IMG/VR virus record: IMGVR_UViG_3300035701_000016
Location: 1-64,000 of that record
Length of the DNA: 64,000 nt
Direction: 5' to 3' (one strand)
Source of the DNA: a virus
Position 1 is the first letter of the stretch. Every line of letters starts with the position of its first letter. The notes beneath the pieces were generated by a model, which searched no databases, was not told where the DNA came from, and saw only the letters and a program-made list of their open reading frames with translations. Shown here piece by piece: positions 1,791-27,230 of the stretch. The translations under genes were made by a program, and so were the position numbers.

Positions 1791-3311
1791 ATGGAAAACC
1801 GAAAGGCAGAGGTTACGGTAGATCCGTCACTGTTCAGTATGGTTGCAAGAACCATGTACAGCTCAGATCCTACCATAATTGTTCCAAGAGAACTTCTGCA
1901 AAATTCTGTGGATGCTTGCAAGAGAGCGGGCGTCATACCAGAGATATCCATGATCATAGAAACTCACTGGTCTTCTACAGAAGGTGAGAGTTGGACATCC
2001 ATTGTTTGTGAAGACAATGGTTGTGGCATGGATCAGGATGAGCTGGTTGACAAATTCTTGAAGCTCGGTGCGTCTTCAAAACGTGGAGATAGCCAGTCTA
2101 CCGGAAAGTTCGGGATTGCTAAAGCGGCAATCATGTCCGGTAAGGATTGGTCTGTTGAAACTAACGAAATAGCCGTAAGTTTTGAAGATGTGCGAGAAGG
2201 CAATCTTGTAAGAGATCTTCCGGAACCCAGAGTAGGAACCAGAGTTTATGTGATGCTAGATAGATATTGCTACAGCAAACAGACAATTGTTCGTCTGATT
2301 GAATCCTCAGAAGTAGATATCAAACTTATCCTCACGGAACGCTCCGATACCTGCTACAATATTGAACACTGTGGGCTTCTGGTCAATCCTCAGAATGAAG
2401 TAGTTCTTGTAGAAGACAAGTTGTGGAAAGGTACATCCATAGAAAAGCTTCCGTCAAACGAAGCAGATGGATATACTTTTGTTCGCTTGAATGGATTGAC
2501 CCAGTTTGAATTAAAAGGCCACTGCTCGGAAAGAGAAACCAATCTTCTCATAGATATGTTTCCTTCTACCGCAGATCCTGGAAATGACGAGTATCCATTC
2601 ACAATGTCCAGAGAAAATCTTCGTGGATCTAGCAAAGACAAGATCGACTCCTGGGTTGACGAGTGCAACAGAAATCCGTACACTACCGATTCCTTGCGAG
2701 AGGATCTTACCAACCAGGAAAAGCAGAATTTCATTCCAGGATATTCTCTGAGGGGCAAACGATCCAGACTTCATGGTGGAACTGAAGAGCAGGATAATGA
2801 TCAAGATAACATTAGAGATTCGAAAATAGTAGATGCTCTAAGAAAGATCAAGAATTATCCCTACGGTACAGATGCCATGAAGTTTATTGACGAAAATGCC
2901 ATCTCTCCTATAATTCGTCTTGACAGATATACGGTAACAGATGAAACCTTCCCTCGTGATTCTAAGATCATGCAGGCATGGGCTATGATGCTAACGTATG
3001 TAGTTGACAATGAAATAAAGTTCGGAGTTGGTTTGATCGGTGCATCTCTAACGACATCTCAGTTAGACACATCTTCCGGAATGTATTTCTTCTCAATCAA
3101 TCCTGGCTTTGTCTGCTTTGAGAAAACTCCGTTCGGTAGAGCTTTGGCTATGTGGGGAATGGCTTCTCATGAAGCTTCTCATCTGCATATTCAAAACCAT
3201 AACGAAAGTTTCACGATGGCAGAGTTGATGGTTCAGCATGAATCTGCGGATGATATCTATCCAATAGTAGCTAAGGTTGCGAGAATTCTATCCGGACCTG
3301 AGTTCTTCTAG
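1791..3311 (+). CDS. GHKL (HSP90/rIIA-like) ATPase with C-terminal HExxH metallopeptidase-like motif
   Basis: RELLQNSVDA (N box), EDNGCGM (G1), GKFGIA (G2), GT (G3); C-terminal HEASHLHIQNHNESF. Confidence 0.8.
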   Translation: MENRKAEVTVDPSLFSMVARTMYSSDPTIIVPRELLQNSVDACKRAGVIPEISMIIETHWSSTEGESWTSIVCEDNGCGMDQDELVDKFLKLGASSKRGDSQSTGKFGIAKAAIMSGKDWSVETNEIAVSFEDVREGNLVRDLPEPRVGTRVYVMLDRYCYSKQTIVRLIESSEVDIKLILTERSDTCYNIEHCGLLVNPQNEVVLVEDKLWKGTSIEKLPSNEADGYTFVRLNGLTQFELKGHCSERETNLLIDMFPSTADPGNDEYPFTMSRENLRGSSKDKIDSWVDECNRNPYTTDSLREDLTNQEKQNFIPGYSLRGKRSRLHGGTEEQDNDQDNIRDSKIVDALRKIKNYPYGTDAMKFIDENAISPIIRLDRYTVTDETFPRDSKIMQAWAMMLTYVVDNEIKFGVGLIGASLTTSQLDTSSGMYFFSINPGFVCFEKTPFGRALAMWGMASHEASHLHIQNHNESFTMAELMVQHESADDIYPIVAKVARILSGPEFF

Positions 3312-7994: not shown

Positions 7995-8477
7995 CTATTC
8001 ATCTTCATATCTGAAGTATATATCTTTTTCAGGATAATCTCTAAGAATCGGATCTCCAGTTTTACATGATCTGATTATTTCGGATCGATTTATTCCGGTA
8101 ATATCTGAGGCATTGTATACTGAGCTATAGATGTATCCAGTTTCCATATTTATAACCTTCTTATACTCAGTAAATCCCGATGATCTTCCTTTTCTGCTCA
8201 TATCCTGACCATTATCTTCATGAGTACCTTGAAATAGATGGGTAGGATTGACACACCAGGGATGATCACACTTATGACATACTAATAGAGTAGAATCAAA
8301 GCTCTGAATTGATAACTTGAAAGATAATACATGAGCTCTCACAACTCTTCCTTCATATCCGAAACATCCATATTCTTCCTTGAATGGTCCTATCCATTCC
8401 CAACAGTCATCAATTCCCTTTATGATAACTTTGGACCAGAATCTTTCTTCATCTTTCTCAGACAATGAAAATTTCAT
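7995..8477 (-). CDS. HNH homing endonuclease with NUMOD1-like C-terminus
   Basis: RFWSKV...CWEW...AH...VCHKCDHPWCVNPTHLFQGTHEDN; C-terminal ETGYIYSSVYNASDITG. Confidence 0.9.
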   Translation of the reverse strand: MKFSLSEKDEERFWSKVIIKGIDDCWEWIGPFKEEYGCFGYEGRVVRAHVLSFKLSIQSFDSTLLVCHKCDHPWCVNPTHLFQGTHEDNGQDMSRKGRSSGFTEYKKVINMETGYIYSSVYNASDITGINRSEIIRSCKTGDPILRDYPEKDIYFRYEDE

Positions 8478-12883: not shown

Positions 12884-13774
12884 TTACTTTCCCCATTCTG
12901 TGTGAAATACACACTCTTCTTTTCTTTTATCTTCTCTTAGCCAGCCACGTTTTTGATCAATGGCTGGATGACGTAAGGCTCCGGTAGAGAATCTTACCTT
13001 ACCGTAGACTTTCATTACACGACCCATGAGCTGATCACGATTTGCCCAGACCCAGGCTCTCAAACCATCATCAAATCCACCTCCTACAGTACAGACTGGT
13101 GTTAAAGAACCGTTGATATAAAGACCGCCAATGATGGATCCCAGGGTTCCGTCAAGTCTATTCTTGCCTTCGTTAAATCCAATTATAACATAGTCCATGT
13201 CGACTTCTTTCTTCATTCTACCGAGGGACATTCCTGGGGAAAGAAAGTCACTTTCCTTCTTCCAGACAATTCCTTCGAATCCATCCTCAATATTTACCAT
13301 GGAATTCCAGATCTCATCAAATTCCTCTAATTTCCAGTTGTTTATTGCCATAAAAATTTGACCGAGATTTTTGCCTTCTCTCTCAATGAAATCTGCTATC
13401 ATAATATTTCTAGCACTAAGACAGTGAATACTTACCACTATTCCATCAATCTCAAATGCATCAAATATTATAAATTTTCCTTTTCTACCAGGTTTCTGAG
13501 ACCAGTTTGTTCCGTACATCCATTCGCACAAGAACAGAGATGTACCCCTATAGTCAACATTCTGAGCAAGACGAATGTCACCACCTGAGGTCATTACTCT
13601 CATTATGCCATCGCAGAAATCAACAAGAGTAAACCAACCGTCATATTTGAGTTGAAATGTATCATAAGTAAGTGAGAGATGGATCAGATGCTGTATGGAT
13701 ACATCTGGTTCTATATCTTGCATAGACATCTTGTATGTCCCCAACAGTTCTCTTAACTGATCTTCAGTTCTCAT
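12884..13774 (-). CDS. lig: ATP-dependent DNA ligase
   Basis: LKYDG (motif I), FDAF, FEGIVWK, RMKK, OB-domain VGGGF, LRHP. Confidence 0.9.
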   Translation of the reverse strand: MRTEDQLRELLGTYKMSMQDIEPDVSIQHLIHLSLTYDTFQLKYDGWFTLVDFCDGIMRVMTSGGDIRLAQNVDYRGTSLFLCEWMYGTNWSQKPGRKGKFIIFDAFEIDGIVVSIHCLSARNIMIADFIEREGKNLGQIFMAINNWKLEEFDEIWNSMVNIEDGFEGIVWKKESDFLSPGMSLGRMKKEVDMDYVIIGFNEGKNRLDGTLGSIIGGLYINGSLTPVCTVGGGFDDGLRAWVWANRDQLMGRVMKVYGKVRFSTGALRHPAIDQKRGWLREDKRKEECVFHTEWGK

Positions 13775-14304
13775 TTTAGCATCTCCAGCATTCTCTTGAA
13801 TAACCTCATGGTAAGCATAGCATCAACATGAGCACCATGTAATTCATCTCTGCTATATTGTATTCTCAATGATTCGCAGGCATCTGATAGAGTTAACCAT
13901 CTCTTTGATCCAGTAACGTATTGAAGATACTGCATTACGTCGATGACCAGGACAGGAGCCAGATATCTCTTCAACTCTTTGAATCTGTAGGAGGATTGGT
14001 TCAATACCCTCAGATCAAAATGGACATTATATCCTAACACAATATTTTCTCCGACGAGCTTACCGGTTATATATGACCAGAAGTAGCGAATATCTCTGCA
14101 TCTTACCACCATCTCATCGGTTATGTGGTGGATATGAGAGACCTCTTCCGATATAGGATCTACCGGTTTTATCAACTCATTGAAGATAAGTCTCTCATCC
14201 CACGATACCACAGCCAATTGGATAACCTCAGCCTGAGAATCAATTCCGGTAGTCTCAGTGTCTATGAAAACTATTTTATCCGTATTGAGATAGAAAGGAA
14301 TCAT
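13771..14304 (-). CDS. DEDDh 3'-5' exonuclease (DnaQ-like)
   Basis: FIDTETTG, GYNVHFD, LHGAHVDA. Confidence 0.9.
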   Translation of the reverse strand: MIPFYLNTDKIVFIDTETTGIDSQAEVIQLAVVSWDERLIFNELIKPVDPISEEVSHIHHITDEMVVRCRDIRYFWSYITGKLVGENIVLGYNVHFDLRVLNQSSYRFKELKRYLAPVLVIDVMQYLQYVTGSKRWLTLSDACESLRIQYSRDELHGAHVDAMLTMRLFKRMLEMLK

Positions 14305-14469: not shown

Positions 14470-14970
14470 CTATAGGAATGAAAAATTATGAGGTGTGAGG
14501 TCAACTGATCTTATCCATTCTCCGGTATTGCAAGAATATGCAATCATAGATCGGTATAATCCTGTACTGGTAGAAGCTTCATTTATAGAATTGAATATAT
14601 CTCCTGTAACATTATCTAACACTTTCTTTCTTTTTCCTCCGTTATGATGAATTTTTCCTCTGGCTCTTCCTTTACTAACCATATCCTGACCATTATCTTT
14701 TTGGGTTCCCGGAAATAGGTGATTGGGATTAACACAACAAGGATTATCACATTTGTGAAGAATACCTTTTCTTTCTGGTATAATTCCTACATATATTTGA
14801 TATGATATTCTATGAGCATAATCTCTATAACCTCTGAAGTAGAATTGACCATATCCTGCTCTAGTTCTGCCACCAGACCATTCCCAGCACTCATCGTCAT
14901 CTTTCCTCACAAATTTTTGCTCGAAATTCAAAACGTCAATAACTAAAATATCATACATTTTATTAGTCAT
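14470..14970 (-). CDS. HNH homing endonuclease with NUMOD1-like C-terminus
   Basis: CWEW...AHRISY...LHKCDNPCCVNPNHLFPGTQKDN. Confidence 0.9.
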   Translation of the reverse strand: MTNKMYDILVIDVLNFEQKFVRKDDDECWEWSGGRTRAGYGQFYFRGYRDYAHRISYQIYVGIIPERKGILHKCDNPCCVNPNHLFPGTQKDNGQDMVSKGRARGKIHHNGGKRKKVLDNVTGDIFNSINEASTSTGLYRSMIAYSCNTGEWIRSVDLTPHNFSFL

Positions 14971-16388: not shown

Positions 16389-16850
16389 TTAATCAATTTT
16401 TGGTCGGTTTACATCTGGTCTCTTATCTTTATTTCTCATCATGAAACCTAGATATGAACTGCTAACTCCATACTTCTTTCCCAAAGTATAGTAACTAATT
16501 CCTCCCCTAGAATATTCTTCAAGAATTTTCTCCAGCAAATCTTTGGATAAGGTAATAGATCTAAATTTTCTGCTCATGTCATCCATGTTATCCTGGTCAG
16601 TTCCCTTAAATAGATGATTGGGATTACAGCAAGAGTGATTATCACATTTGTGAAGAACGCATAGATTATCATCTATATCCTCTACATACCATTCATATAC
16701 TATTCTATTGCATCTAGCCATTTTCCCGTTAACTCTGAATAATCCGTATCCGTCGGTATTAGTTCCTAACCAGTTCCAACAATCATCAATTCCCCTAATA
16801 TCTACTTTTCTCCAGAATCTATCCAGATCATTCTGAGTCATGTCTATCAT
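16389..16850 (-). CDS. HNH homing endonuclease with C-terminal HTH
   Basis: RFWRKV...CWNW...VLHKCDNHSCCNPNHLFKGTDQDN; SYYTLGKKYGVS. Confidence 0.9.
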   Translation of the reverse strand: MIDMTQNDLDRFWRKVDIRGIDDCWNWLGTNTDGYGLFRVNGKMARCNRIVYEWYVEDIDDNLCVLHKCDNHSCCNPNHLFKGTDQDNMDDMSRKFRSITLSKDLLEKILEEYSRGGISYYTLGKKYGVSSSYLGFMMRNKDKRPDVNRPKID

Positions 16851-19350: not shown

Positions 19351-19507
19351 CAGGATCCTCTGCAATCCAGAAAAGAAAAGATGTTGGCATTTTCTCGAAA
19401 TACTCCCCGAGAGATATTATCTGCCCCTCCATCCCACAATAGGGGCATCGGTCATCGGTAGGAATAGTAACAAAGATGGAGAAACAGAAGGTGCAGATTA
19501 CCATCAT
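19325..19507 (-). CDS. Small zinc-ribbon protein
   Basis: CTFC...CPYC. Confidence 0.55.
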   Translation of the reverse strand: MMVICTFCFSIFVTIPTDDRCPYCGMEGQIISLGEYFEKMPTSFLFWIAEDPDDNQHTEG

Positions 19508-20124
19508 TCCTCCGAGTCTTCGTCGTCTATATCCTCAAATTCTGCATCTATGATATCATCTTTTTCTTCTGGCTCTTTCAGCCCTGCCTGTTCATCATGA
19601 ATGAATGCTTGGAGAGGAATCTCTTTATCCTCCAGCAATGACTCTTTTGGAATCTTAAACATTTCTCCGTAGGAAGGTCCAACCTTGGCATCAGTAGCGA
19701 ACGGTATACCCACCAGATCAGGAACCTGCATAATGGTAGATATATTCTTCGCATTGTAGATTATCTTATCCCAAGGAATTTCGGTAATAGTTTCGTCGTG
19801 TACAAGACTGACAAGAGATGATCCTGGACTGTTCCCTATAATCCAATCAGTAACTCGTATAGCCGCAATTGACAGAAGGTCTGCACAACCTCCCTGAATG
19901 AGAGCGTTACAACCCTTGTAGCAATCTATAGGATTATCCTCTCTCCATATACGACCACTCCAGTATTTGACATATCCATCCATCTTGCAAGAATTTATGA
20001 CCTCTGACATCCAGGGCTTTATTCTAGGAAACTGCGCCCAATATTGATCAGTTACCCTTGAAGCCTGCATTCTGTTCATATTCAATTTGTACATTAAACT
20101 ACCGATTGTCATTCCATATATTAG
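19504..20124 (-). CDS. polA: Family A DNA polymerase, exon 2
   Basis: LIYGM (end of motif B), NALIQGGCAD, LVHDET (motif C). Confidence 0.9.
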   Translation of the reverse strand, partial: LIYGMTIGSLMYKLNMNRMQASRVTDQYWAQFPRIKPWMSEVINSCKMDGYVKYWSGRIWREDNPIDCYKGCNALIQGGCADLLSIAAIRVTDWIIGNSPGSSLVSLVHDETITEIPWDKIIYNAKNISTIMQVPDLVGIPFATDAKVGPSYGEMFKIPKESLLEDKEIPLQAFIHDEQAGLKEPEEKDDIIDAEFEDIDDEDSEE

Positions 20125-20875
20125 CATGTTGTTCACATCTTTCGATGTGCATGGACTATACCTTCAATTTGGTAAATCTTCCACTAGAGTCTACGCAACT
20201 GTGATTAAGTTGATGACAACTTTTGCACAAGAGAGTAAGATTGGAGACGTCGTTATTTGCATGATCTCCATCCTCATGATGAACACACCATAAGTTAGTC
20301 ATCTCAGGATCTGCAATTATTTCAGTCAAATCCTTTCCACAATATTCGCAGTTGAACTTTTCCATGGAAGACAACTTTATTTCGCGGAACTTTGTTACTC
20401 CGCCTTTCCAGTTGTTGTTGAGTTCTCCTGACTGATATCTACCAGTCATTCCTGTATAGGAAGAATCCGTAATATATCGTGGAAGACTACAAGTTTTACA
20501 GATAACTTGCCAATATCTTACTGGTTTGAATTCATTTCCGCATCTTGAGCAAATAGCTGACTCGGGAGCTTTCTGATGGACTACTCTGCAGTTAGGACAA
20601 TTTTTCACAGTTTGATAAGAAGGTACGAACATCTTGCCACATTTTCTGCATGATATTTCAGGGAATTTTCCATCAGAATCTAGTTTCATAACTTACCTCA
20701 TGCTCGCTTGGTTATACCGATTGGTATCCCAGACCGTAACCGTTCTGGTTACGCTGTGAGTCTCTGAACCATTTATTCTCATTCCTGAGAATTCTGGCTG
20801 CTGATTGCCATGCGACTTGTCGTTTAGGTTTCCAGCAATTGAGCGAGTTTTATTTTGGCCTGACTTTACAGGTTG
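20125..20875 (-). mobile_element. Group I self-splicing intron (IA2-like) in the DNA polymerase gene
   Basis: P AATTGCTGGAAA, Q AATCAGCAG, R GTTCAGAGACT, S AAGGTATAGTCC, P1 TTTGGT/GCCAAA with U.G, P9 CACATC-GAAA-GATGTG, terminal G; splicing restores KTISFG|LIYG. Confidence 0.92.
20156..20689 (-). CDS. Intron-encoded HNH endonuclease with N-terminal Zn fingers
   Basis: CxxC repeats; NNNWKGG; CEYCG...VHHEDGDHANNDVSNLTLLCKSCHQLNH. Confidence 0.9.
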   Translation of the reverse strand: MKLDSDGKFPEISCRKCGKMFVPSYQTVKNCPNCRVVHQKAPESAICSRCGNEFKPVRYWQVICKTCSLPRYITDSSYTGMTGRYQSGELNNNWKGGVTKFREIKLSSMEKFNCEYCGKDLTEIIADPEMTNLWCVHHEDGDHANNDVSNLTLLCKSCHQLNHSCVDSSGRFTKLKV

Positions 20876-22279
20876 ACCAAAGCTTATCGTTTTAGACCAC
20901 TCTCTGTGAACTTGATTCATGTCATAACCACAATCACCCCAGACCTTCAATGCAATTTCCAGATGGACATCTTTACCTGCCAACAAAGCATCCAACATGA
21001 AGGGATCTCTGGATAGAACTCCAAACATTCTCATTTCCATCTGCTTGTAATCTATGCTTAGGAATAGCATACCCTTTCTTGGGATGATAGCCTTTCTCAT
21101 GTTATACTCATCGGTTCTTTTCACCGAGCCGGTATATACTGATTGAGTAAACCTACCGCGAACATTAGAGGCTACATTCTGCAGATTTGGTTTGGAGGAA
21201 CTTAGTCTACCGGTTCTTGTACCGGTGATATTGAAGCTGGTATGCAATACTTCATCGTCATCTATCTGATCTAACCATTTGAGATAATTACGTCTCAACT
21301 TATCCGCTTCTCTTAGTGCAGATATCAATTCACCAAGGGGATGATGGATTTTTTCGGTGAGAATAAATGTAGCTGTGCAAGTTGACTTATACTTGCCAGC
21401 ATCAGCAAATCTTGATCTATCCACACCATCTGCATCAGCAAATGGATTCTTGGGTTTGGGAATTCCTAGACCTGCATAGATTGCGTTACTAAGTTGCTGA
21501 GGACTACGCCAGTTGAACTCGTTACCGCACGAATCCCATAGGGTTTCCTCCATGGTTTGAATATGTTCATGCAATCTGTGCTCAGCCCAATCTGTAAAAT
21601 CTACGTCGAGACTAACTCCATGTTCCTCTGCATCGTACAGAGTTTTTATGTAGTTCATATCCTTCCAGAATAAATCTTCCAAACCTATTTTGCATAAGGT
21701 GGGAAAAAGTTTTTCGGCAAGTTGATAGGTGACCATACAGTCATTGGCGCAGTACGCACTTACTAGATGAAGAGGCCAGTCCCATATTTTGGTTCTTGCA
21801 GGTCCTTGATCAACAAAAGATCTCTTGGATGACGATCCCAGAAATCTTGTTTCAGCATCTTTCAGATTCTTCTTATATCTACTGTCTAACAGATGGATCA
21901 TAACGGTAGTATCCATTATAGTCCAGCCACCCGCACGAGGATCCATCTTCATGAAGTGAAGATCGAATTTGGAATTGTGCATGAGTATGGTGGTATCAGA
22001 TGATAGACTGTTTACTGCATTGATTACATCTATTCTGTCTTTGTCATCAAGAGTGGGAATATATCCTATCTTACCGTTGGATTTGCAGAAGAATCCAACT
22101 CCTATGATGTGATTTTGCCACGGATTGAGTCCCGTGGTTTCCGTATCCAGTGCAACCATTCTACCCTCACAGGACATCAAATCCTGGATGGTAGCAATAT
22201 AATTATGATCTACGCTTAGAACAGGATAATCGTCATCCTGTATTCGAGCCAGCTGAGTTATCGGGACAATTTCGTCCAT
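20876..22279 (-). CDS. polA: Family A DNA polymerase, exon 1 (3'-5' exonuclease + polymerase)
   Basis: LDTETTG, HNSKFD, YCAND, TRTGRLSS..PNLQN, DYKQMEMR (motif A); SD GGAGG before ATG 22279. Confidence 0.92.
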
Positions 22280-22721
22280 CTGTAGTTTCCTCCACATGAG
22301 TTATTATGACATCCACCTGAACTAATTTTGTTTCATGAAGTTCTATCTCACGACCACAATTTTCACAGGTGAATTGATGAAGTTTTCCTCCGCATATTAT
22401 ATGCTCGGAATCGCAATACCTACATTTCAAAACAATCATTATTTCGTCATCCTTTCTTAATCTGACATTATTCTTCAGCAGATTGTAGCTCATTTGCAAC
22501 ATTTTGACGGTCCATCCTAACTCATAATTTTCACGAGTATAGTCAGACAGTGCTTCTCTAACATTACCTATGGCGGATTCCAATTCTTTTATTTCCGTTT
22601 CTTTTCTATCAACCATATATATCAGATCTTGATAGGATTTTATAGCAGACTCAGGAATTTCTCTTCCGTCTGCCATCAATGCACAAGTATCGTGTATTGC
22701 TTCCTTCAGGTTTTCTTTCAT
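22233..22721 (-). CDS. Hypothetical coiled-coil + Zn-ribbon protein
   Basis: CRYC...CENC. Confidence 0.65.
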   Translation of the reverse strand: MKENLKEAIHDTCALMADGREIPESAIKSYQDLIYMVDRKETEIKELESAIGNVREALSDYTRENYELGWTVKMLQMSYNLLKNNVRLRKDDEIMIVLKCRYCDSEHIICGGKLHQFTCENCGREIELHETKLVQVDVIITHVEETTDGRNCPDNSAGSNTG

Positions 22722-23467
22722 TTCTTATTCTTCCATATACAGGGACGATCTGTTCTTGAATGATATCCACAATCCTCACCTCTTTCAAAAGGAGCTTCCA
22801 ATAAGACTACACCGTATTGATTGGTCAGTAGATCTTTTATTTTTTTCATCACTACCTGCCACTCTCCTCTTTGGGCTTCGCAGCACATACGTTGAGCATA
22901 CATTCTTTGAAGTGTGCTGAGAGCTGCTCCAAAGAATACACTGGTCATAATATTGGTAGGAAGAATTCCTCTTGCCTCTTCAGATGAAACTCCTGCGTAT
23001 AGCAATTCTTCATAGGCATCTATGGAGTCTATTACTGATTTTTTGTACTCTTCCAACCTTACCGGAATTGATGGGTCCAGGATTTCCTTCCCCACAAGAA
23101 CTCTGTAGACATCTTTAGATCCCAGAAATCTCATAGATTGTTGTACGAAAGATGCTCCTACCCTAGTACGAACCAGTTGATGAGTAAATGCTCTGCTAAC
23201 ATTGGATATCAGGAATACGAAATACTGCATCTCGAATGGAGTTTGTAATTTCGTTGAGTTGAGATCCTTGATAGCCATAACAACTTCTTCGTCGGTAATA
23301 TCGTCATTGGTGTAGATGCCACTATATCCACGAGTGACTTTACCGATGGTCTGTAGAGGTTGCATCGGTCCATCAATAAATTCAACGGTAGCACAAGGAT
23401 TAGAATGAAGTTCAATGATGAACTTATGCTGTCCAACCTTCCATTTGATCTCCTCTATACAAGTCAT
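22718..23467 (-). CDS. Divergent ThyX-like flavin-dependent enzyme
   Basis: TPFE, VSRAFTHQLVRTR-x-SFVQQSMRF, EEARGILP; RHR replaced by RTR. Confidence 0.8.
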   Translation of the reverse strand: MTCIEEIKWKVGQHKFIIELHSNPCATVEFIDGPMQPLQTIGKVTRGYSGIYTNDDITDEEVVMAIKDLNSTKLQTPFEMQYFVFLISNVSRAFTHQLVRTRVGASFVQQSMRFLGSKDVYRVLVGKEILDPSIPVRLEEYKKSVIDSIDAYEELLYAGVSSEEARGILPTNIMTSVFFGAALSTLQRMYAQRMCCEAQRGEWQVVMKKIKDLLTNQYGVVLLEAPFERGEDCGYHSRTDRPCIWKNKK

Positions 23468-23471
23468 AGTA

Positions 23472-23969
23472 TCATTCCTTATCTACGAATCTGAAGTTTG
23501 AAATATGTCCAAGAGTTACGTTATCTCTTCTGCACGACATGGAGATGGCGGTACAACTTACTCCAGTAATAATTGAGGCTTCCTTTACAGATTCGAATAT
23601 AATTCCGGTATTCATGTCAAGAACTCTCTTTGCTCTGTTAGATTTCTTTCCAAGATGAGAAATACTCATTCTTTCTCTTGAGTCATCTGATATAATTTTT
23701 CCTACCAACTCATTTCTTGTTTTTAAGGAATGATTAAAAGATATGAATCCTCCACTCTGAAGATTGAATCCATTCGGATGGAGTGAATTGTATTTTAATA
23801 TGTAGAGTCTTTCCATCTCATCAAGATGATCATAAAATCTTACATCCTTAGCTATTAGTATATTTCTCGATAGAAGAGTATGAATTCTATTGCTCAATTT
23901 TGCTTGAGTTTGACCGATGTAAGACTTTCCTGTGCTAGTATTGTAGAATCTATATATTATTCTAGTCAT
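23472..23969 (-). CDS. GIY-YIG-family homing endonuclease with NUMOD motifs
   Basis: IIY...YIGQT...R...E...I..YNS..PNGFN; NUMOD1-like C-terminus. Confidence 0.8.
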   Translation of the reverse strand: MTRIIYRFYNTSTGKSYIGQTQAKLSNRIHTLLSRNILIAKDVRFYDHLDEMERLYILKYNSLHPNGFNLQSGGFISFNHSLKTRNELVGKIISDDSRERMSISHLGKKSNRAKRVLDMNTGIIFESVKEASIITGVSCTAISMSCRRDNVTLGHISNFRFVDKE

Positions 23970-24751
23970 AATGTTCTTCCCCTACTGTCACTATATCCCA
24001 GAACTTTTCCAAATCTTTTGATCGGATATTGTATCATTTTATTCCAATCATATCGGGTCGTGAAGGTTCTATTGGAACTTCCCATCGTTATTGAAGTGAC
24101 GATATCACCATGAAGACTGGCAAACTCTACCAAAGCTTCATATAATCTTTCATCTCTACCGGACTTTTCTTGACCACCATCTGAGTTACCAGTACGAGCA
24201 ATAAATGGATTATGGGTCAAATTAATATCAATTTGAAGATTACCTATTGCATAACCCGACTTCCATAGTCTTGCTCCAAATTCCCTATCCTCCAGATATT
24301 CTAGAGTCCATGGACCTATTTCTGCCATGACTGCAGTACGAGCCGCCCAGAGCTGCGCTCCGCATGGAGAAAGAACAAAATTCTTAGTTGACTGTAATTT
24401 CTCTGACCAATGGAAATATGCTCGTGATGAGCTGGCAATTGTACCGAGAGTTTGATTGTCAACAACTTCCTTTACCATAGCCTCAACAATCTCAGGACGG
24501 TAAGCAAGATCATCATCACTTTGAATTATGATATCGAAGTCATGGACAATAGCATACTGAGCAATACAGTTTCTAGCCGGAACTAGACCATAATTTACAT
24601 TTCGCTCCAGTATCTTAACCTTGCTGGAGTTAGCATGAACTTCAGCACCCTGCGATACCACGATAACTTCATCGCAAACTTCAGCAAGAACGTCAGCAAT
24701 CTTACCGGATGTGTTACGCAGTCTGGTCGGTATACCGCCTAGAATTCTCAT
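23966..24751 (-). CDS. GT-A fold glycosyltransferase (candidate DNA/nucleotide-modifying)
   Basis: GLVPARN, QSDDD (DxD), LEDREFGARL; located in the replication region. Confidence 0.75.
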   Translation of the reverse strand: MRILGGIPTRLRNTSGKIADVLAEVCDEVIVVSQGAEVHANSSKVKILERNVNYGLVPARNCIAQYAIVHDFDIIIQSDDDLAYRPEIVEAMVKEVVDNQTLGTIASSSRAYFHWSEKLQSTKNFVLSPCGAQLWAARTAVMAEIGPWTLEYLEDREFGARLWKSGYAIGNLQIDINLTHNPFIARTGNSDGGQEKSGRDERLYEALVEFASLHGDIVTSITMGSSNRTFTTRYDWNKMIQYPIKRFGKVLGYSDSRGRTL

Positions 24752-25041
24752 TCACGATCCTTTCCCAACCAGTTTTCTTCTTCCATCATCATGAGAGCAA
24801 TATTCGCATAATTATGCACATCCACGAATAGATTTCGTAAACTCTTAGGATCAGCACCCTTACCGCCATCTCCGGTAGATAATACCATCTGCCTCAGTCT
24901 GGCTATTGCTCCTACTAACTCTACGCTGGCTCCTAGAACACCAGTCTCAACTATAGCATCTCCATATTCCTGATTCTTCTTGACGAATACTGCTGTTGCT
25001 CTACCGCATTCCATATTGAAGTGCATTCTTCTTTCGTCCAT
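24748..25041 (-). CDS. DUF1599-like nucleotide-modification-associated protein
   Basis: FVKKNQEYGD ... DVHNYANIA. Confidence 0.65.
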   Translation of the reverse strand: MDERRMHFNMECGRATAVFVKKNQEYGDAIVETGVLGASVELVGAIARLRQMVLSTGDGGKGADPKSLRNLFVDVHNYANIALMMMEEENWLGKDRE

Positions 25042-25043
25042 TT

Positions 25044-25979
25044 TTACTCCAGATATTTTTCCAGATCTATATCAGTGAATTTATTCACTATTTTCACATT
25101 GCCATTCACAATGTTTTGATTATAGTTATGTCTTCTAACGAAAACTCTGAATCCTGAATTGGCTCCTCTGAGAATCAAACCAGGATCGTCCTCGAGAAGT
25201 ATAATCTTTTGATTGCTACCTTTTCTTAGTTTATCAGCTAACAATAATCTTGGTTCTGCTGTTATGATTAATTTATCTATACAAAGTTTGTTATCCTCTA
25301 TCCATTCCCATGTGTCAAGCCATATTCTCTTATACTTGTCCGCAGGTCTAGCGGTAACTGCTATGATATAGGCGTCCAAATCCTTCAAACTTTCCAAGAG
25401 AAGTGCTGCGTCAGGATATACCGGAATATTACGATATCCTCCACTTCGTTCAAATTCATCTTTAAGCTCATAATAGTCTGGGAATCTCATGGAAAGATCC
25501 GTGTCCATCGCCAAAGAAGTTTCGGGAATTTCGGTAAGAGCCGTAACTCCTTTGTTCATAATGAAATTCATGAAAGCCCATCTCCAGTTTCCAACAGTTC
25601 CATCTAGATCAGTTATCACAACAGATCTATCTTTTGGAATCTCAGCAAATTCTTGATCATATCGTAATTTAAGAATGTCATTCTTTTGACCGACATAGAA
25701 TAGTAAATCCTCTGCAGTGAAACCCCACAATTCCCACAGAGAAAAAGCGTATTTTGTCAGATCGGCCAACTCCATTGCCATGGAAACTTTGTCGAATCTT
25801 CTTGGAATATCAGATTTACGATGACGTTTCCAATTTATTTCCCGAAGAACCTCATCAACTTCTGCTATCATTCCTAGAAGATATTTTTCAGTCCAGTGAT
25901 CCTTGTTCTCGAATCCTTTATTTCGTATTTCTTCATTGTACTCAATCTGCTCAGCAAAGATATCGTAGAGATTTTTCAT
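25044..25979 (-). CDS. All-alpha dNTP pyrophosphatase (dimeric dUTPase/MazG-like) fused to HAD 5'-nucleotidase
   Basis: AEVDEVLREINWKRH, MELAD; DLDGTV, VTAR, LLEDD. Confidence 0.8.
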   Translation of the reverse strand: MKNLYDIFAEQIEYNEEIRNKGFENKDHWTEKYLLGMIAEVDEVLREINWKRHRKSDIPRRFDKVSMAMELADLTKYAFSLWELWGFTAEDLLFYVGQKNDILKLRYDQEFAEIPKDRSVVITDLDGTVGNWRWAFMNFIMNKGVTALTEIPETSLAMDTDLSMRFPDYYELKDEFERSGGYRNIPVYPDAALLLESLKDLDAYIIAVTARPADKYKRIWLDTWEWIEDNKLCIDKLIITAEPRLLLADKLRKGSNQKIILLEDDPGLILRGANSGFRVFVRRHNYNQNIVNGNVKIVNKFTDIDLEKYLE

Positions 25980-26785
25980 AATTCCCTCAATATTTCTTCT
26001 ACCAGATAATAGGTATCATGAGCCAACACGGTACGATCAAACCTACCAAGTCTTCCTATAGGAATGATATTATAGGCAAGATATGGAACAGTATATGTAA
26101 GATTGGTAGGTTTAAGATCATCTATGTATACTACATTGTCATGTTTAGAAAATTTATTAGTTTTAGCATCCAAATCTTTAGAGTCCATATAGTGAGCTGA
26201 ATATTCTGTAGATTTCTTTCCGAAGAGATAGGATACCCTTACCACCATATCCTTTTCCCTACCGTTATAGATCACACGATTACCCTGTTTGACATCATAG
26301 GTTGATACTGATACGGGAATCTTCGCCATCATATATCCCAAATGTTTTCTACCTAATTCAGAAGGAAAAGAATGAAATACCAACTCAGCTTGTTTCGATC
26401 TAGTTATTATTTCCTTATCCGTTAAGTTACCACAAGGAAAGTGTTCGAAATCGCATTTGGACAGAATGTAGGGAATGGTATGTTGAGGATTGTAACCATA
26501 TTCTACATGCTCATATTCTGGAAATGATGACTTATATCCCCTAGGAAATTCTCCCCACTGTTTCTTGATGTAATTTTCTCTTTCCCCTACTCTGGTTACA
26601 ACTATTCTTTCCTGTTTTGATCCCTCAGCGAATCTTTCAGGTATTGAATGAAGCCACATGGCTCCGGGATTTAGATTGATACCAGAGGACAGAACGGTAG
26701 GAACTATACCGTAATCATTACAAGCGACTATGGCATATACAGCAGACGGACCGCCTCCAATTATGGTTACTCTTTTGAGGGGCAT
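25976..26785 (-). CDS. FAD-dependent oxidoreductase (UDP-galactopyranose-mutase-like architecture)
   Basis: IIGGGPSA dinucleotide-binding motif; C-terminal IGRLGRF. Confidence 0.65.
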   Translation of the reverse strand: MPLKRVTIIGGGPSAVYAIVACNDYGIVPTVLSSGINLNPGAMWLHSIPERFAEGSKQERIVVTRVGERENYIKKQWGEFPRGYKSSFPEYEHVEYGYNPQHTIPYILSKCDFEHFPCGNLTDKEIITRSKQAELVFHSFPSELGRKHLGYMMAKIPVSVSTYDVKQGNRVIYNGREKDMVVRVSYLFGKKSTEYSAHYMDSKDLDAKTNKFSKHDNVVYIDDLKPTNLTYTVPYLAYNIIPIGRLGRFDRTVLAHDTYYLVEEILREL

Positions 26786-27183
26786 AATAAATCCTTTTTC
26801 CAGGTTTTCCAAATATAATATCGTAATAAAAGATAGGCATCAGATTCATGAACGGTAGAGGCCTCTTTGAAACTCCATTCTCTTGCCTTAGCCACAGGTT
26901 TCCATTCAGAGGGAGCAACATATTTGAACTCAACACCTAGAACAGATATACTTATCAATATAGTTCTTTCAATAAGAACCATATCCTGACTTTTTTCTGC
27001 GGGAAGTCTCTCAAGAATTGCCAAATCACAGATAGTCAGTTCATCCGGAACTTTGAGTTCATGAGCTTTAACCGTTCTATGCGAGATGATATTTCCCGGA
27101 TAGAAATATTCAAGATCCTCCGGAAATATTTCCGCACTTACTATTCCTGTTAACCATCCGGTATCAAACGCTACAATATTCAT
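26767..27183 (-). CDS. RuvC-like Holliday junction resolvase
   Basis: IVAFDTG..TG, AILE, PSEWK, HESDA. Confidence 0.7.
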   Translation of the reverse strand: MNIVAFDTGWLTGIVSAEIFPEDLEYFYPGNIISHRTVKAHELKVPDELTICDLAILERLPAEKSQDMVLIERTILISISVLGVEFKYVAPSEWKPVAKAREWSFKEASTVHESDAYLLLRYYIWKTWKKDLLCPSKE

Positions 27184-27195
27184 ATCTACTCCAAC

Positions 27196-27230
27196 GACTT
27201 TAGTCCCCATATTGCTATGGGGACTAAAGT
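27196..27230. repeat. 15-bp perfect inverted repeat (RNA hairpin)
   Basis: ACTTTAGTCCCCATA-TTGC-TATGGGGACTAAAGT; no U tract. Confidence 0.7.

Follow-up and report, generated by a model that had tools for sequence, protein, structure and literature searches.

Among the described phage systems closest to the locus reported here are those of SPO1, SP8 and phi-e, PhiW-14, SP10, ViI and the M6 phages, where a thymidylate-synthase homolog and hydrolases of dTTP, dUTP or dTMP replace thymine in the nucleotide pool and the resulting base is decorated after replication (PMC5889632, PMC8989533). In PhiW-14 and SP10, 5-hydroxymethyldeoxyuridine (5-hmdU) is incorporated and then converted in situ, in a sequence-specific manner, to thymidine or to a hypermodified base (PMC5889632). 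In RB69, DLP3 and Rhizobium phage RL38J1, a thymidylate-synthase homolog acts on the mononucleotide to give it a hydroxyl handle, to which DNA glycosyltransferases add sugars (PMC13326640), and an MnmC1-like flavoenzyme takes part in the thymidine hypermodification of PaMx11 (PMC8989533). For Bacillus phage SP-15, a phage with sugar-bearing hypermodified thymine, a Thy1-family protein (gp9/gp130) was proposed, as a hypothesis, to be a hydroxymethyl-deoxyuridine monophosphate (dUMP) synthase (Kropinski et al. 2018, PMC5977210). In this study, we analysed an operon containing a gene for a ThyX-like protein in a virus from a sediment metagenome, IMG/VR record IMGVR_UViG_3300035701_000016. The record has 75,103 bp, and the window, that is, the whole stretch analysed, is its first 64 kb (positions 1 to 64,000). 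The locus follows the same logic as SPO1, SP8 and phi-e, PhiW-14, SP10, ViI and the M6 phages; however, the hydroxymethylase of these phages is of the ThyA family and works with a P-loop 5-hmdU DNA kinase and aGPT-Pplase transferases, whereas the window has a ThyX-type protein and a virus-specific flavoprotein.

We read the operon as the form that a widespread and so far uncharacterised phage cassette for making a C5-modified thymidine precursor takes in one lineage, and we give this reading a probability of roughly 40%. The core of the cassette is read as a ThyX of a particular clade, a small flavoprotein, an NT5C-type deoxynucleotidase (fused here to a MazG/dUTPase domain) and a DUF1599-like protein. 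In this scheme, the ThyX-like protein would bind dUMP and, in place of deoxythymidine monophosphate (dTMP) or along with it, release dUMP substituted at C5, with 5-hydroxymethyl-dUMP as the most probable product, and the companion flavoprotein would serve it as a redox or covalent-flavin partner. The pyrophosphatase-nucleotidase fusion would remove the competing canonical nucleotide, taking the triphosphates dUTP or dTTP through the deoxynucleoside monophosphate (dNMP) to the nucleoside. Host kinases and the phage polymerase PolA could place the modified nucleotide in DNA, and the adjacent GT-A enzyme of this lineage may glycosylate the new hydroxyl once it is in DNA. The six open reading frames (ORFs) of the operon are:

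25976..26785, minus strand: small flavoprotein, 269 aa, with a fold of the amine-oxidase/UDP-galactopyranose mutase (UGM) superfamily
25044..25979, minus strand: fusion of a MazG/dimeric-dUTPase-like domain with an NT5C-type HAD domain, 311 aa, from family-wide Pfam matches and motifs
24748..25041, minus strand: DUF1599-like protein, 97 aa, from a weak Pfam match and structural neighbours
23966..24751, minus strand: GT-A (GT2-like) glycosyltransferase, 261 aa, from PF00535, the DDD motif and the fold
23472..23969, minus strand: GIY-YIG homing endonuclease, 165 aa, from phrog_314 (E=2e-14)
22718..23467, minus strand: ThyX-like protein, 249 aa, from Pfam Thy1

These co-oriented ORFs are tightly packed on the minus strand, which carries most genes of the window, from 26785 down to 22718. 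Four junctions have 4-nt overlaps (22718/22721, 23966/23969, 24748/24751 and 25976/25979) and two others are gaps, one of 2 nt and one of 4 nt; the genes form a single operon with translational coupling, which belongs to the replication module. A sequence-only reading of this DNA, made before the present analysis and without database searches, had named five genes here, and ORF layout, Pfam and fold evidence confirmed that all five are real and lie at 22718-26785 on the minus strand. Two further ORFs were added to that list, the GIY-YIG gene between the glycosyltransferase and ThyX-like genes and a 162-aa zinc-ribbon ORF between the ThyX-like gene and polA. The GIY-YIG ORF is absent from all related loci and is a selfish insert outside the pathway.

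The ThyX-like protein matched Pfam Thy1 (PF02511) with E=1.8e-27 (96.8 bits against a cut-off of 24.8), and its profile matched T. maritima ThyX chains with E values of about 1e-17 to 1e-18. It has the same fold and family as the characterised ThyX of T. maritima, M. tuberculosis and PBCV-1 and shares with them the dUMP- and flavin-contacting residues, a set of Arg, Ser and Gln, all of which (R78, R80, S88, R90, R147, R174 and Q75) are found in the window protein. It differs from these enzymes in the replacement of a residue triad, in a variable RHR histidine, in three added cysteines and a C-terminal extension, and in the extra enzymes always encoded alongside. In T. maritima ThyX, Tyr91 and Asn85 hold His53, whose stacking partners are the folate pterin and the reduced flavin, and the triad gates the folate site (PMC11940539). 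Alignment to this enzyme placed L74 at His53, V108 at Asn85, F114 at Tyr91 and T101 at His79; the central His of RHRxxSxxxxSxR is absent, the window sequence being R100-T101-R102...S111-x-R113. The strings LQTPFE and RTR, to which the sequence-only reading had drawn attention, are both present in the translation.

A residue table was made for 91 ThyX-like proteins from fetched viral loci and cultured phages, a set that the manner of fetching biases towards this clade. The position equivalent to His53 was Leu or Ile in every one of the 91, and equivalents of Tyr91 and Asn85 were found in none. The equivalents of R78, R80, R90, R174 and Q75 were kept throughout (91/91), R147 in 89 and S88 in 83. 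Three cysteines were near-invariant, namely C195 (90/91), C233 (89/91) and C243 (85/91); C195 lies two residues past the R174 equivalent, and C233 and C243 lie in the C-terminal extension (CxxxxxxxxxC). Judged from this alignment, the window protein belongs to a phage-only clade defined by loss of the His53/Asn85/Tyr91 triad and by the three cysteines. RTR had been singled out as a special signature, a view that did not hold: the middle residue was Q in 40 members, H in 22, Y in 15, T in 10 and S in 4, and because of this variability RTR, present in a minority of 10/91, is no signature of the clade. About 80 metagenomic relatives of the protein were found at 41-63% identity, several of them on contigs of 70-79 kb, and a literature search found no paper giving this clade a function. 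SP-15 gp9 and gp130 were considered as possible members and rejected, as they aligned without the clade cysteines and motifs; the idea of a ThyX-family hydroxymethyl-dUMP synthase is already in print for SP-15 (PMC5977210), and the present clade is, on alignment, distinct from the SP-15 proteins.

Searches with PF00303 (ThyA) and PF12851 (TET/JBP) gave no match in the whole 75-kb genome of the window or in the cultured phages PB1 (Pbunavirus), WFC (Wifcevirus), Aikoy and Hawkeye, and the PF00303 control was positive in 10 of 14 named control genomes. Since no ThyA, TET or JBP gene was found, the ThyX-like protein is the only recognisable pyrimidine-C5 enzyme among the families searched.

The small flavoprotein starts at the ATG at 26785, in agreement with the starts of its homologs, and an alignment of 16 sequences showed a GxGxxA Rossmann motif and 19 invariant residues. 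A Pfam scan at E<=0.01 assigned the protein to no family, GLF (PF03275) included, and a profile search against the PDB reached UGM at E=0.18-0.3 only. The AlphaFold2 model (pLDDT 89) found UGM as its best match among solved structures (Foldseek E about 2e-9; VIA Z 15.7 over 263 residues), while amine oxidases, protoporphyrinogen oxidases and group A monooxygenases scored Z 11-13.6, the top of them about 2 Z below UGM. Structural neighbours in the ESM Atlas were UGM (TM 0.70), D-amino-acid oxidase (0.68) and the MnmC oxidoreductase domain (0.66). UGM aligns to the protein through the FAD and beta-sheet domains only (263 residues of a 473-residue chain); the flavoprotein has 269 aa against about 365-480 aa in full-length UGM, and its model consists of alternating strand and helix elements without a helical bundle. 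A role as UGM or another sugar mutase was rejected on the model, which lacks the helical, UDP-binding domain 2. Accordingly, the UGM-like label of the sequence-only reading is kept for the fold and dropped for the function, the protein also being present in many phages without this glycosyltransferase. The suggestion of a furanose sugar likewise found no support, because the flavoprotein has no UDP-binding domain and travels with the ThyX-like protein and the nucleotidase with or without a glycosyltransferase.

The flavoprotein belongs to a large, virus-only set of clusters. Alignment with hhalign connected it to the 'oxidoreductase' gp78 of Mycobacterium phage Aikoy (probability 98%, E=1.3e-13). 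The 'oxidoreductase' gp75 of phage GOATification was rejected as a homolog, as it is a short-chain dehydrogenase/reductase (SDR, PF13561); the true homolog lies elsewhere in the GOATification genome.

The pyrophosphatase-nucleotidase fusion consists of a pyrophosphatase domain (about residues 1-105) and an HAD 5'-deoxynucleotidase domain (about residues 115-300). The window protein itself was below threshold for dUTPase_2 (19.8 against 22.9 bits, E=1.1e-3). Across the family of 17 members, dUTPase_2 (PF08761) matched 12 (best E=1.1e-6), MazG (PF03819) 7 and NT5C (PF06941) 8 (best E=3e-7). The EXXE...EXXD metal motif (E40xxE43...E70xxD73) is conserved in the family, and the HAD motifs D124xD126, T209 and D264 are invariant. 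The HAD half also matches actinophage genes annotated as 'nucleotidase/phosphatase', among them the homologous Aikoy gp80, which matched NT5C above cut-off (E=1.5e-8); NT5C-type enzymes are pyrimidine deoxynucleotidases according to the Pfam description. The fusion fits a pool-purging role. Hydroxymethyluracil and uracil phages such as SP8, phi-e and PBS2 show where such an activity makes sense: an enzyme that degrades dUMP or dTMP is useful if thymidylate is to be excluded, and beside a true dTMP synthase it would oppose it.

The DUF1599-like label of the 97-aa protein is weakly supported. DUF1599 (PF07659, nucleotide modification associated domain 1) matched one of 17 family members (E=2e-3) and a Pfam search of the window genome gave no match to it; the ESM Atlas offers a lead, PF07659 being present in 22 of the 30 clusters nearest to the protein, at a structural TM of 0.80. 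The protein also matched phrog_1485 (E=4.8e-6) and is conserved in all relatives. Aikoy gp79, tried as a further relative, proved unrelated and was rejected.

About 20 IMG/VR contigs, whose proteins are 25-70% identical, have their genes in this order, and because it recurs in this way the arrangement is not a chance one. In these loci the genes run SNF2 helicase, exonuclease, Sak4, SSB-like, 147-aa ORF, flavoprotein, MazG-HAD fusion, 97-aa ORF, an optional glycosyltransferase, ThyX, PolA and primase-helicase. The 147-aa ORF (26767-27210, minus strand) lies directly upstream of the flavoprotein gene, overlaps its start by 19 nt and is kept in most relatives; no Pfam or PHROG family matched it. 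Co-occurrence was followed more widely in 80 viral loci, all fetched through their ThyX-like gene, and profile search found a flavoprotein homolog upstream of that gene on the same strand in most of them. Many of the loci without one have little upstream sequence, and at least 8 have a full flank (e.g., L047, L050, L051, L063, L066, L069 and L074). The genes for the flavoprotein, a free-standing NT5C-type HAD protein and the ThyX-like protein adjoin one another in many distant loci, and the flavoprotein accompanies the ThyX-like and nucleotidase genes with or without a glycosyltransferase.

The cassette is also present in at least 126 cultured actinophage records, and about 290 records of Pseudomonas phages have the ThyX-like gene. 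Five actinophages were tested, namely Hawkeye, Rooney, Aikoy, GOATification and Cybele; each has both the ThyX-like and the flavoprotein gene, and the nucleotidase usually adjoins the flavoprotein in them. Counts of cultured records by host genus were identical for the two genes (Gordonia 46, Microbacterium 36, Mycobacterium 32), which suggests one-to-one co-occurrence in actinophages at the level of per-genus counts rather than of single records. With PolA beside the cassette in the window and DnaE-like polymerases beside it in actinophages, the cassette occurs with two types of replicase.

The glycosyltransferase matched Glycos_transf_2 (PF00535) with 28.7 bits against a cut-off of 23.3 and has the invariant residues D79-D81 (the DDD motif), E154-D155 and H180. 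Fold search with its AlphaFold2 model (pLDDT 89) returned many GT-A enzymes at Z 14-16.8, tied at the top being heparosan synthase (16.8), GalNAc-T1 (16.0) and GlfT2 (15.8). The presence of GlfT2 in this group was considered as evidence for a furanose and rejected, the matches being generic for GT-A and giving no clear donor or acceptor. All 34 members of the glycosyltransferase family are close relatives from this phage lineage; the gene always adjoins the ThyX-like gene, in one of two positions, and no homolog was found in a search of cultured phages. Contig sizes such as 2144, 3337 and 4093 bp are common to the ThyX and glycosyltransferase match lists, which suggests that the two genes share those short contigs. 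The gene occurs in about half of the related loci, in some of them between the 97-aa gene and ThyX and in others directly behind ThyX, and is a lineage-specific add-on to the cassette; the sequence-only reading had counted it as a core part of the pathway, which its absence from about half of the close relatives contradicts. Its position beside the ThyX-like gene is the ground on which it may be taken for a DNA-base glycosyltransferase.

Two groups of cultured phages carry members of the same ThyX-like clade and have a DNA phenotype. PB1 gp61 of Pbunavirus and WFC gp068 of Wifcevirus both have RTR, a hydrophobic residue at His53 and the conserved cysteines. Virion DNA of the Pbunavirus phages F8 and 14-1 contains thymidine derivatives of 362 and 390 Da, read as sugar-alcohol and cyclised pentose adducts (PMC12191111); the modified thymidine makes up about a quarter of T and stands in TG context (PMC12191111, Yee et al. 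2025 preprint), and the authors state that such phages lack genes previously tied to hypermodification (PMC12191111). By our arithmetic, joining a tetritol or a pentose to 5-hmdU, with loss of water in each case, gives the two masses. Wifcevirus phages show broad resistance to restriction-modification systems (PMC11990801). These phages thus resemble the window in the ThyX clade and in having no ThyA or TET gene, and the adduct mass in F8 and 14-1 matches a hydroxymethyl-plus-glycosyl scheme. In contrast to the window, they have neither the flavoprotein partner (no homolog in PB1 or WFC at E<=0.1) nor the glycosyltransferase family, and a polynucleotide-kinase-like gene stands beside ThyX, with a FabG-like gene also present in WFC. 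A pool enzyme might be thought unable to explain a mark restricted to one motif, an objection that is answered by the precedent of PhiW-14 and SP10 (PMC5889632).

The gene that follows the ThyX-like gene in PB1 (L094) and WFC (L095) is annotated as polynucleotide kinase/phosphorylase, and in WFC the FabG-like reductase comes next. The Hawkeye cassette also includes a FabG-like gene, and GOATification has the SDR (PF13561) mentioned above; a short-chain reductase may be a further recurrent part of the cassette.

These observations have to be weighed against an ordinary thymidylate-supply and pool-sanitising unit, an explanation that we hold to be as probable as a C5-modified precursor. The ThyX-like protein would then be a true flavin-dependent dTMP synthase with lineage-specific binding of folate or reductant, and the flavoprotein its dedicated reductase or flavin supplier; the MazG/dUTPase-like domain would make dUMP from dUTP and keep uracil out, the HAD nucleotidase would recycle nucleotides from degraded host DNA, as Dmp does in T5, and the glycosyltransferase would be an unrelated accessory acting on a protein or cell-surface target. 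Such a unit agrees with the strong Thy1 match and with the retention of R78, R80, S88, R90, R147, R174 and Q75, with the optional nature of the glycosyltransferase, and with the labels thymidylate synthase, oxidoreductase and nucleotidase that the depositors of hundreds of phage genomes have given these genes. It is also in keeping with DNA that assembled normally from a shotgun metagenome, with 37 scanned ORFs among which there is no kinase or known hypermodification gene, and with the canonical state of about three quarters of Pbunavirus T. However, it leaves the loss of the folate/flavin-stacking triad in 91/91 clade members to be explained, it would be odd, metabolically, for a dTMP synthase to have a pyrimidine deoxynucleotidase strictly linked to it, and the glycosyltransferase family is seen beside this ThyX only. 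In addition, hypermodified T or broad resistance to restriction is seen in cultured phages that have a member of the clade, and no other gene has been assigned to it. A different chemistry or target is an unlikely third explanation. It would involve either flavin- and oxygen-dependent C5-hydroxylation to 5-hydroxy-dUMP or 5-hydroxy-deoxycytidine monophosphate (5-hydroxy-dCMP), followed by glycosylation as for the 5-hydroxycytosine (5hoC) of RB69 and DLP3, or a target other than a DNA precursor, such as ribonucleotides, tRNA or a nucleotide-derived small molecule, with the flavoprotein acting as an amine oxidase or in an MnmC1-like manner on a C5 side chain. Flavin-binding thymidylate-synthase homologs do make 5-hydroxy-dCMP that is then arabinosylated, although these are of the ThyA family (PMC13326640), and PaMx11 offers the precedent of an MnmC1-like flavoenzyme (PMC8989533). 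An enzyme that has lost the folate-stacking His could be one that works without folate, and the flavoprotein is about as near to D-amino-acid oxidase and MnmC (TM 0.66-0.68) as to UGM (0.70). Against this explanation, the R174-equivalent Arg and the uracil and phosphate contacts are kept, which would favour dUMP over dCMP; the operon has its place in the replication module, next to the polymerase gene; a partner of the aminotransferase or amino-acid transferase kind was not seen, and nothing points to RNA.

A C5-modified precursor, as we propose, is supported by the company of nucleotidase and flavoprotein, the loss of the triad, the glycosyltransferase family found only beside ThyX and the phenotype of cultured carriers, which together make a modified base a tentative reading. 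Several points weigh against it. All the dUMP and flavin-ring contacts of characterised ThyX enzymes are kept, which leaves true dTMP synthesis fully possible, and T5 has a nucleotidase and a thymidylate synthase yet canonical DNA. Among 37 ORFs of the replication and early regions that were compared with Pfam and PHROG, none matched a dNMP kinase, a 5-hmdU DNA kinase or an aGPT-Pplase/HhH transferase. Pbunavirus and Wifcevirus have no flavoprotein, no gene has been tied to their modified base, and most of their T is canonical. The glycosyltransferase is missing from about half of the relatives, and its association with ThyX comes from one lineage, so that the cases are not independent; the genome has many other glycosyltransferases (in the head module, according to the sequence-only reading), and this one could serve another target. 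The DNA of this phage is known from assembled contigs alone, and a modification of it is at most predicted. The hypermodification pathway first suggested for the locus survives in part: the conserved, coupled operon of nucleotide enzymes, the divergent ThyX, the fit to pool purging and the exclusive pairing of the glycosyltransferase with ThyX stand, and the RTR signature, the sugar mutase and the glycosyltransferase as a core component do not.

RB69, DLP3 and RL38J1 differ from the window in using ThyA homologs on dCMP, and the mutase of RL38J1 is a full-length UGM, whereas the window flavoprotein has no UDP-binding domain. Rather tentatively, at appreciably less than even odds, we propose that the clade ThyX, the flavoprotein and the NT5C nucleotidase constitute an unrecognised ThyX-based route to a C5-modified thymidine precursor (e.g., 5-hydroxymethyl-dUMP) in hundreds of cultured phages and the missing basis of their sugar-type hypermodification, with the GT-A enzyme glycosylating the base in the window lineage. 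Judging by gene content, the full set would be found in SEA-PHAGES actinophages, and the ThyX-like gene in the therapy-relevant Pbunavirus and Wifcevirus. If this is true, DNA base hypermodification has drawn on a second thymidylate-synthase scaffold of unrelated structure, that of ThyX together with a new flavoprotein; genes would be assigned to the thymidine modification of Pbunavirus therapy phages, and the restriction resistance of Wifcevirus could be accounted for. If instead the proteins supply plain dTMP, a large ThyX clade works without the folate-stacking His and needs a partner flavoprotein, which matters for the ThyX mechanism and for inhibitor work. As the cassette and the ThyX-like gene are widespread in cultured phages, the question is directly testable with existing strains.

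The genome that carries the operon has a 127-bp repeat at the two ends of the record (1-127 and 74977-75103) and is therefore complete, with terminal repeats or with circular permutation or circular assembly. The stretch is present in two sediment metagenomes only, as assembled contigs, and comparison of the region with cultured phages at the DNA level found no close relative. Other features of the replication module and of the divergently transcribed early region are:

22233-22721, minus strand: zinc-ribbon ORF, 162 aa, between the ThyX-like gene and polA
19504..22297, minus strand: family A DNA polymerase, intron-split, with DNA_pol_A and 3'-5' exonuclease domains
20156-20689, minus strand: HNH endonuclease ORF in the intron, from Pfam scan
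16389-16850, 14470-14970 and 7995-8477, minus strand: HNH_3-type homing endonuclease ORFs of the replication module
12884-14304, minus strand: ATP-dependent DNA ligase-like ORF (phrog_114, E=8e-20), then a DnaQ/RNase_T-type exonuclease (E=2e-20)
1791-3311, plus strand: GHKL-type ATPase, 506 aa, of the early region (HATPase_c_3, E=1.6e-11)

The family A polymerase directly downstream of the operon, a neighbour of the pathway rather than a part of it, matched DNA_pol_A with E=3.4e-40 in addition to its 3'-5' exonuclease domain. Its first exon ends in ...KTISFG and its second begins with LIYGMT, with about 750 nt between them (20125-20875, minus strand). The Rfam group I intron model Intron_gpI (RF00028) matched 20133-20903 over its whole length with E=1.8e-6 and 34 bits, against a gathering score of 50 that this match does not reach; the gene is predicted to be split by a group I intron whose probable splice points follow from the continuity of the protein. 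Together with the HNH gene of this intron, the GIY-YIG insert and the three HNH_3 genes bring the selfish endonuclease genes to five in about 20 kb.

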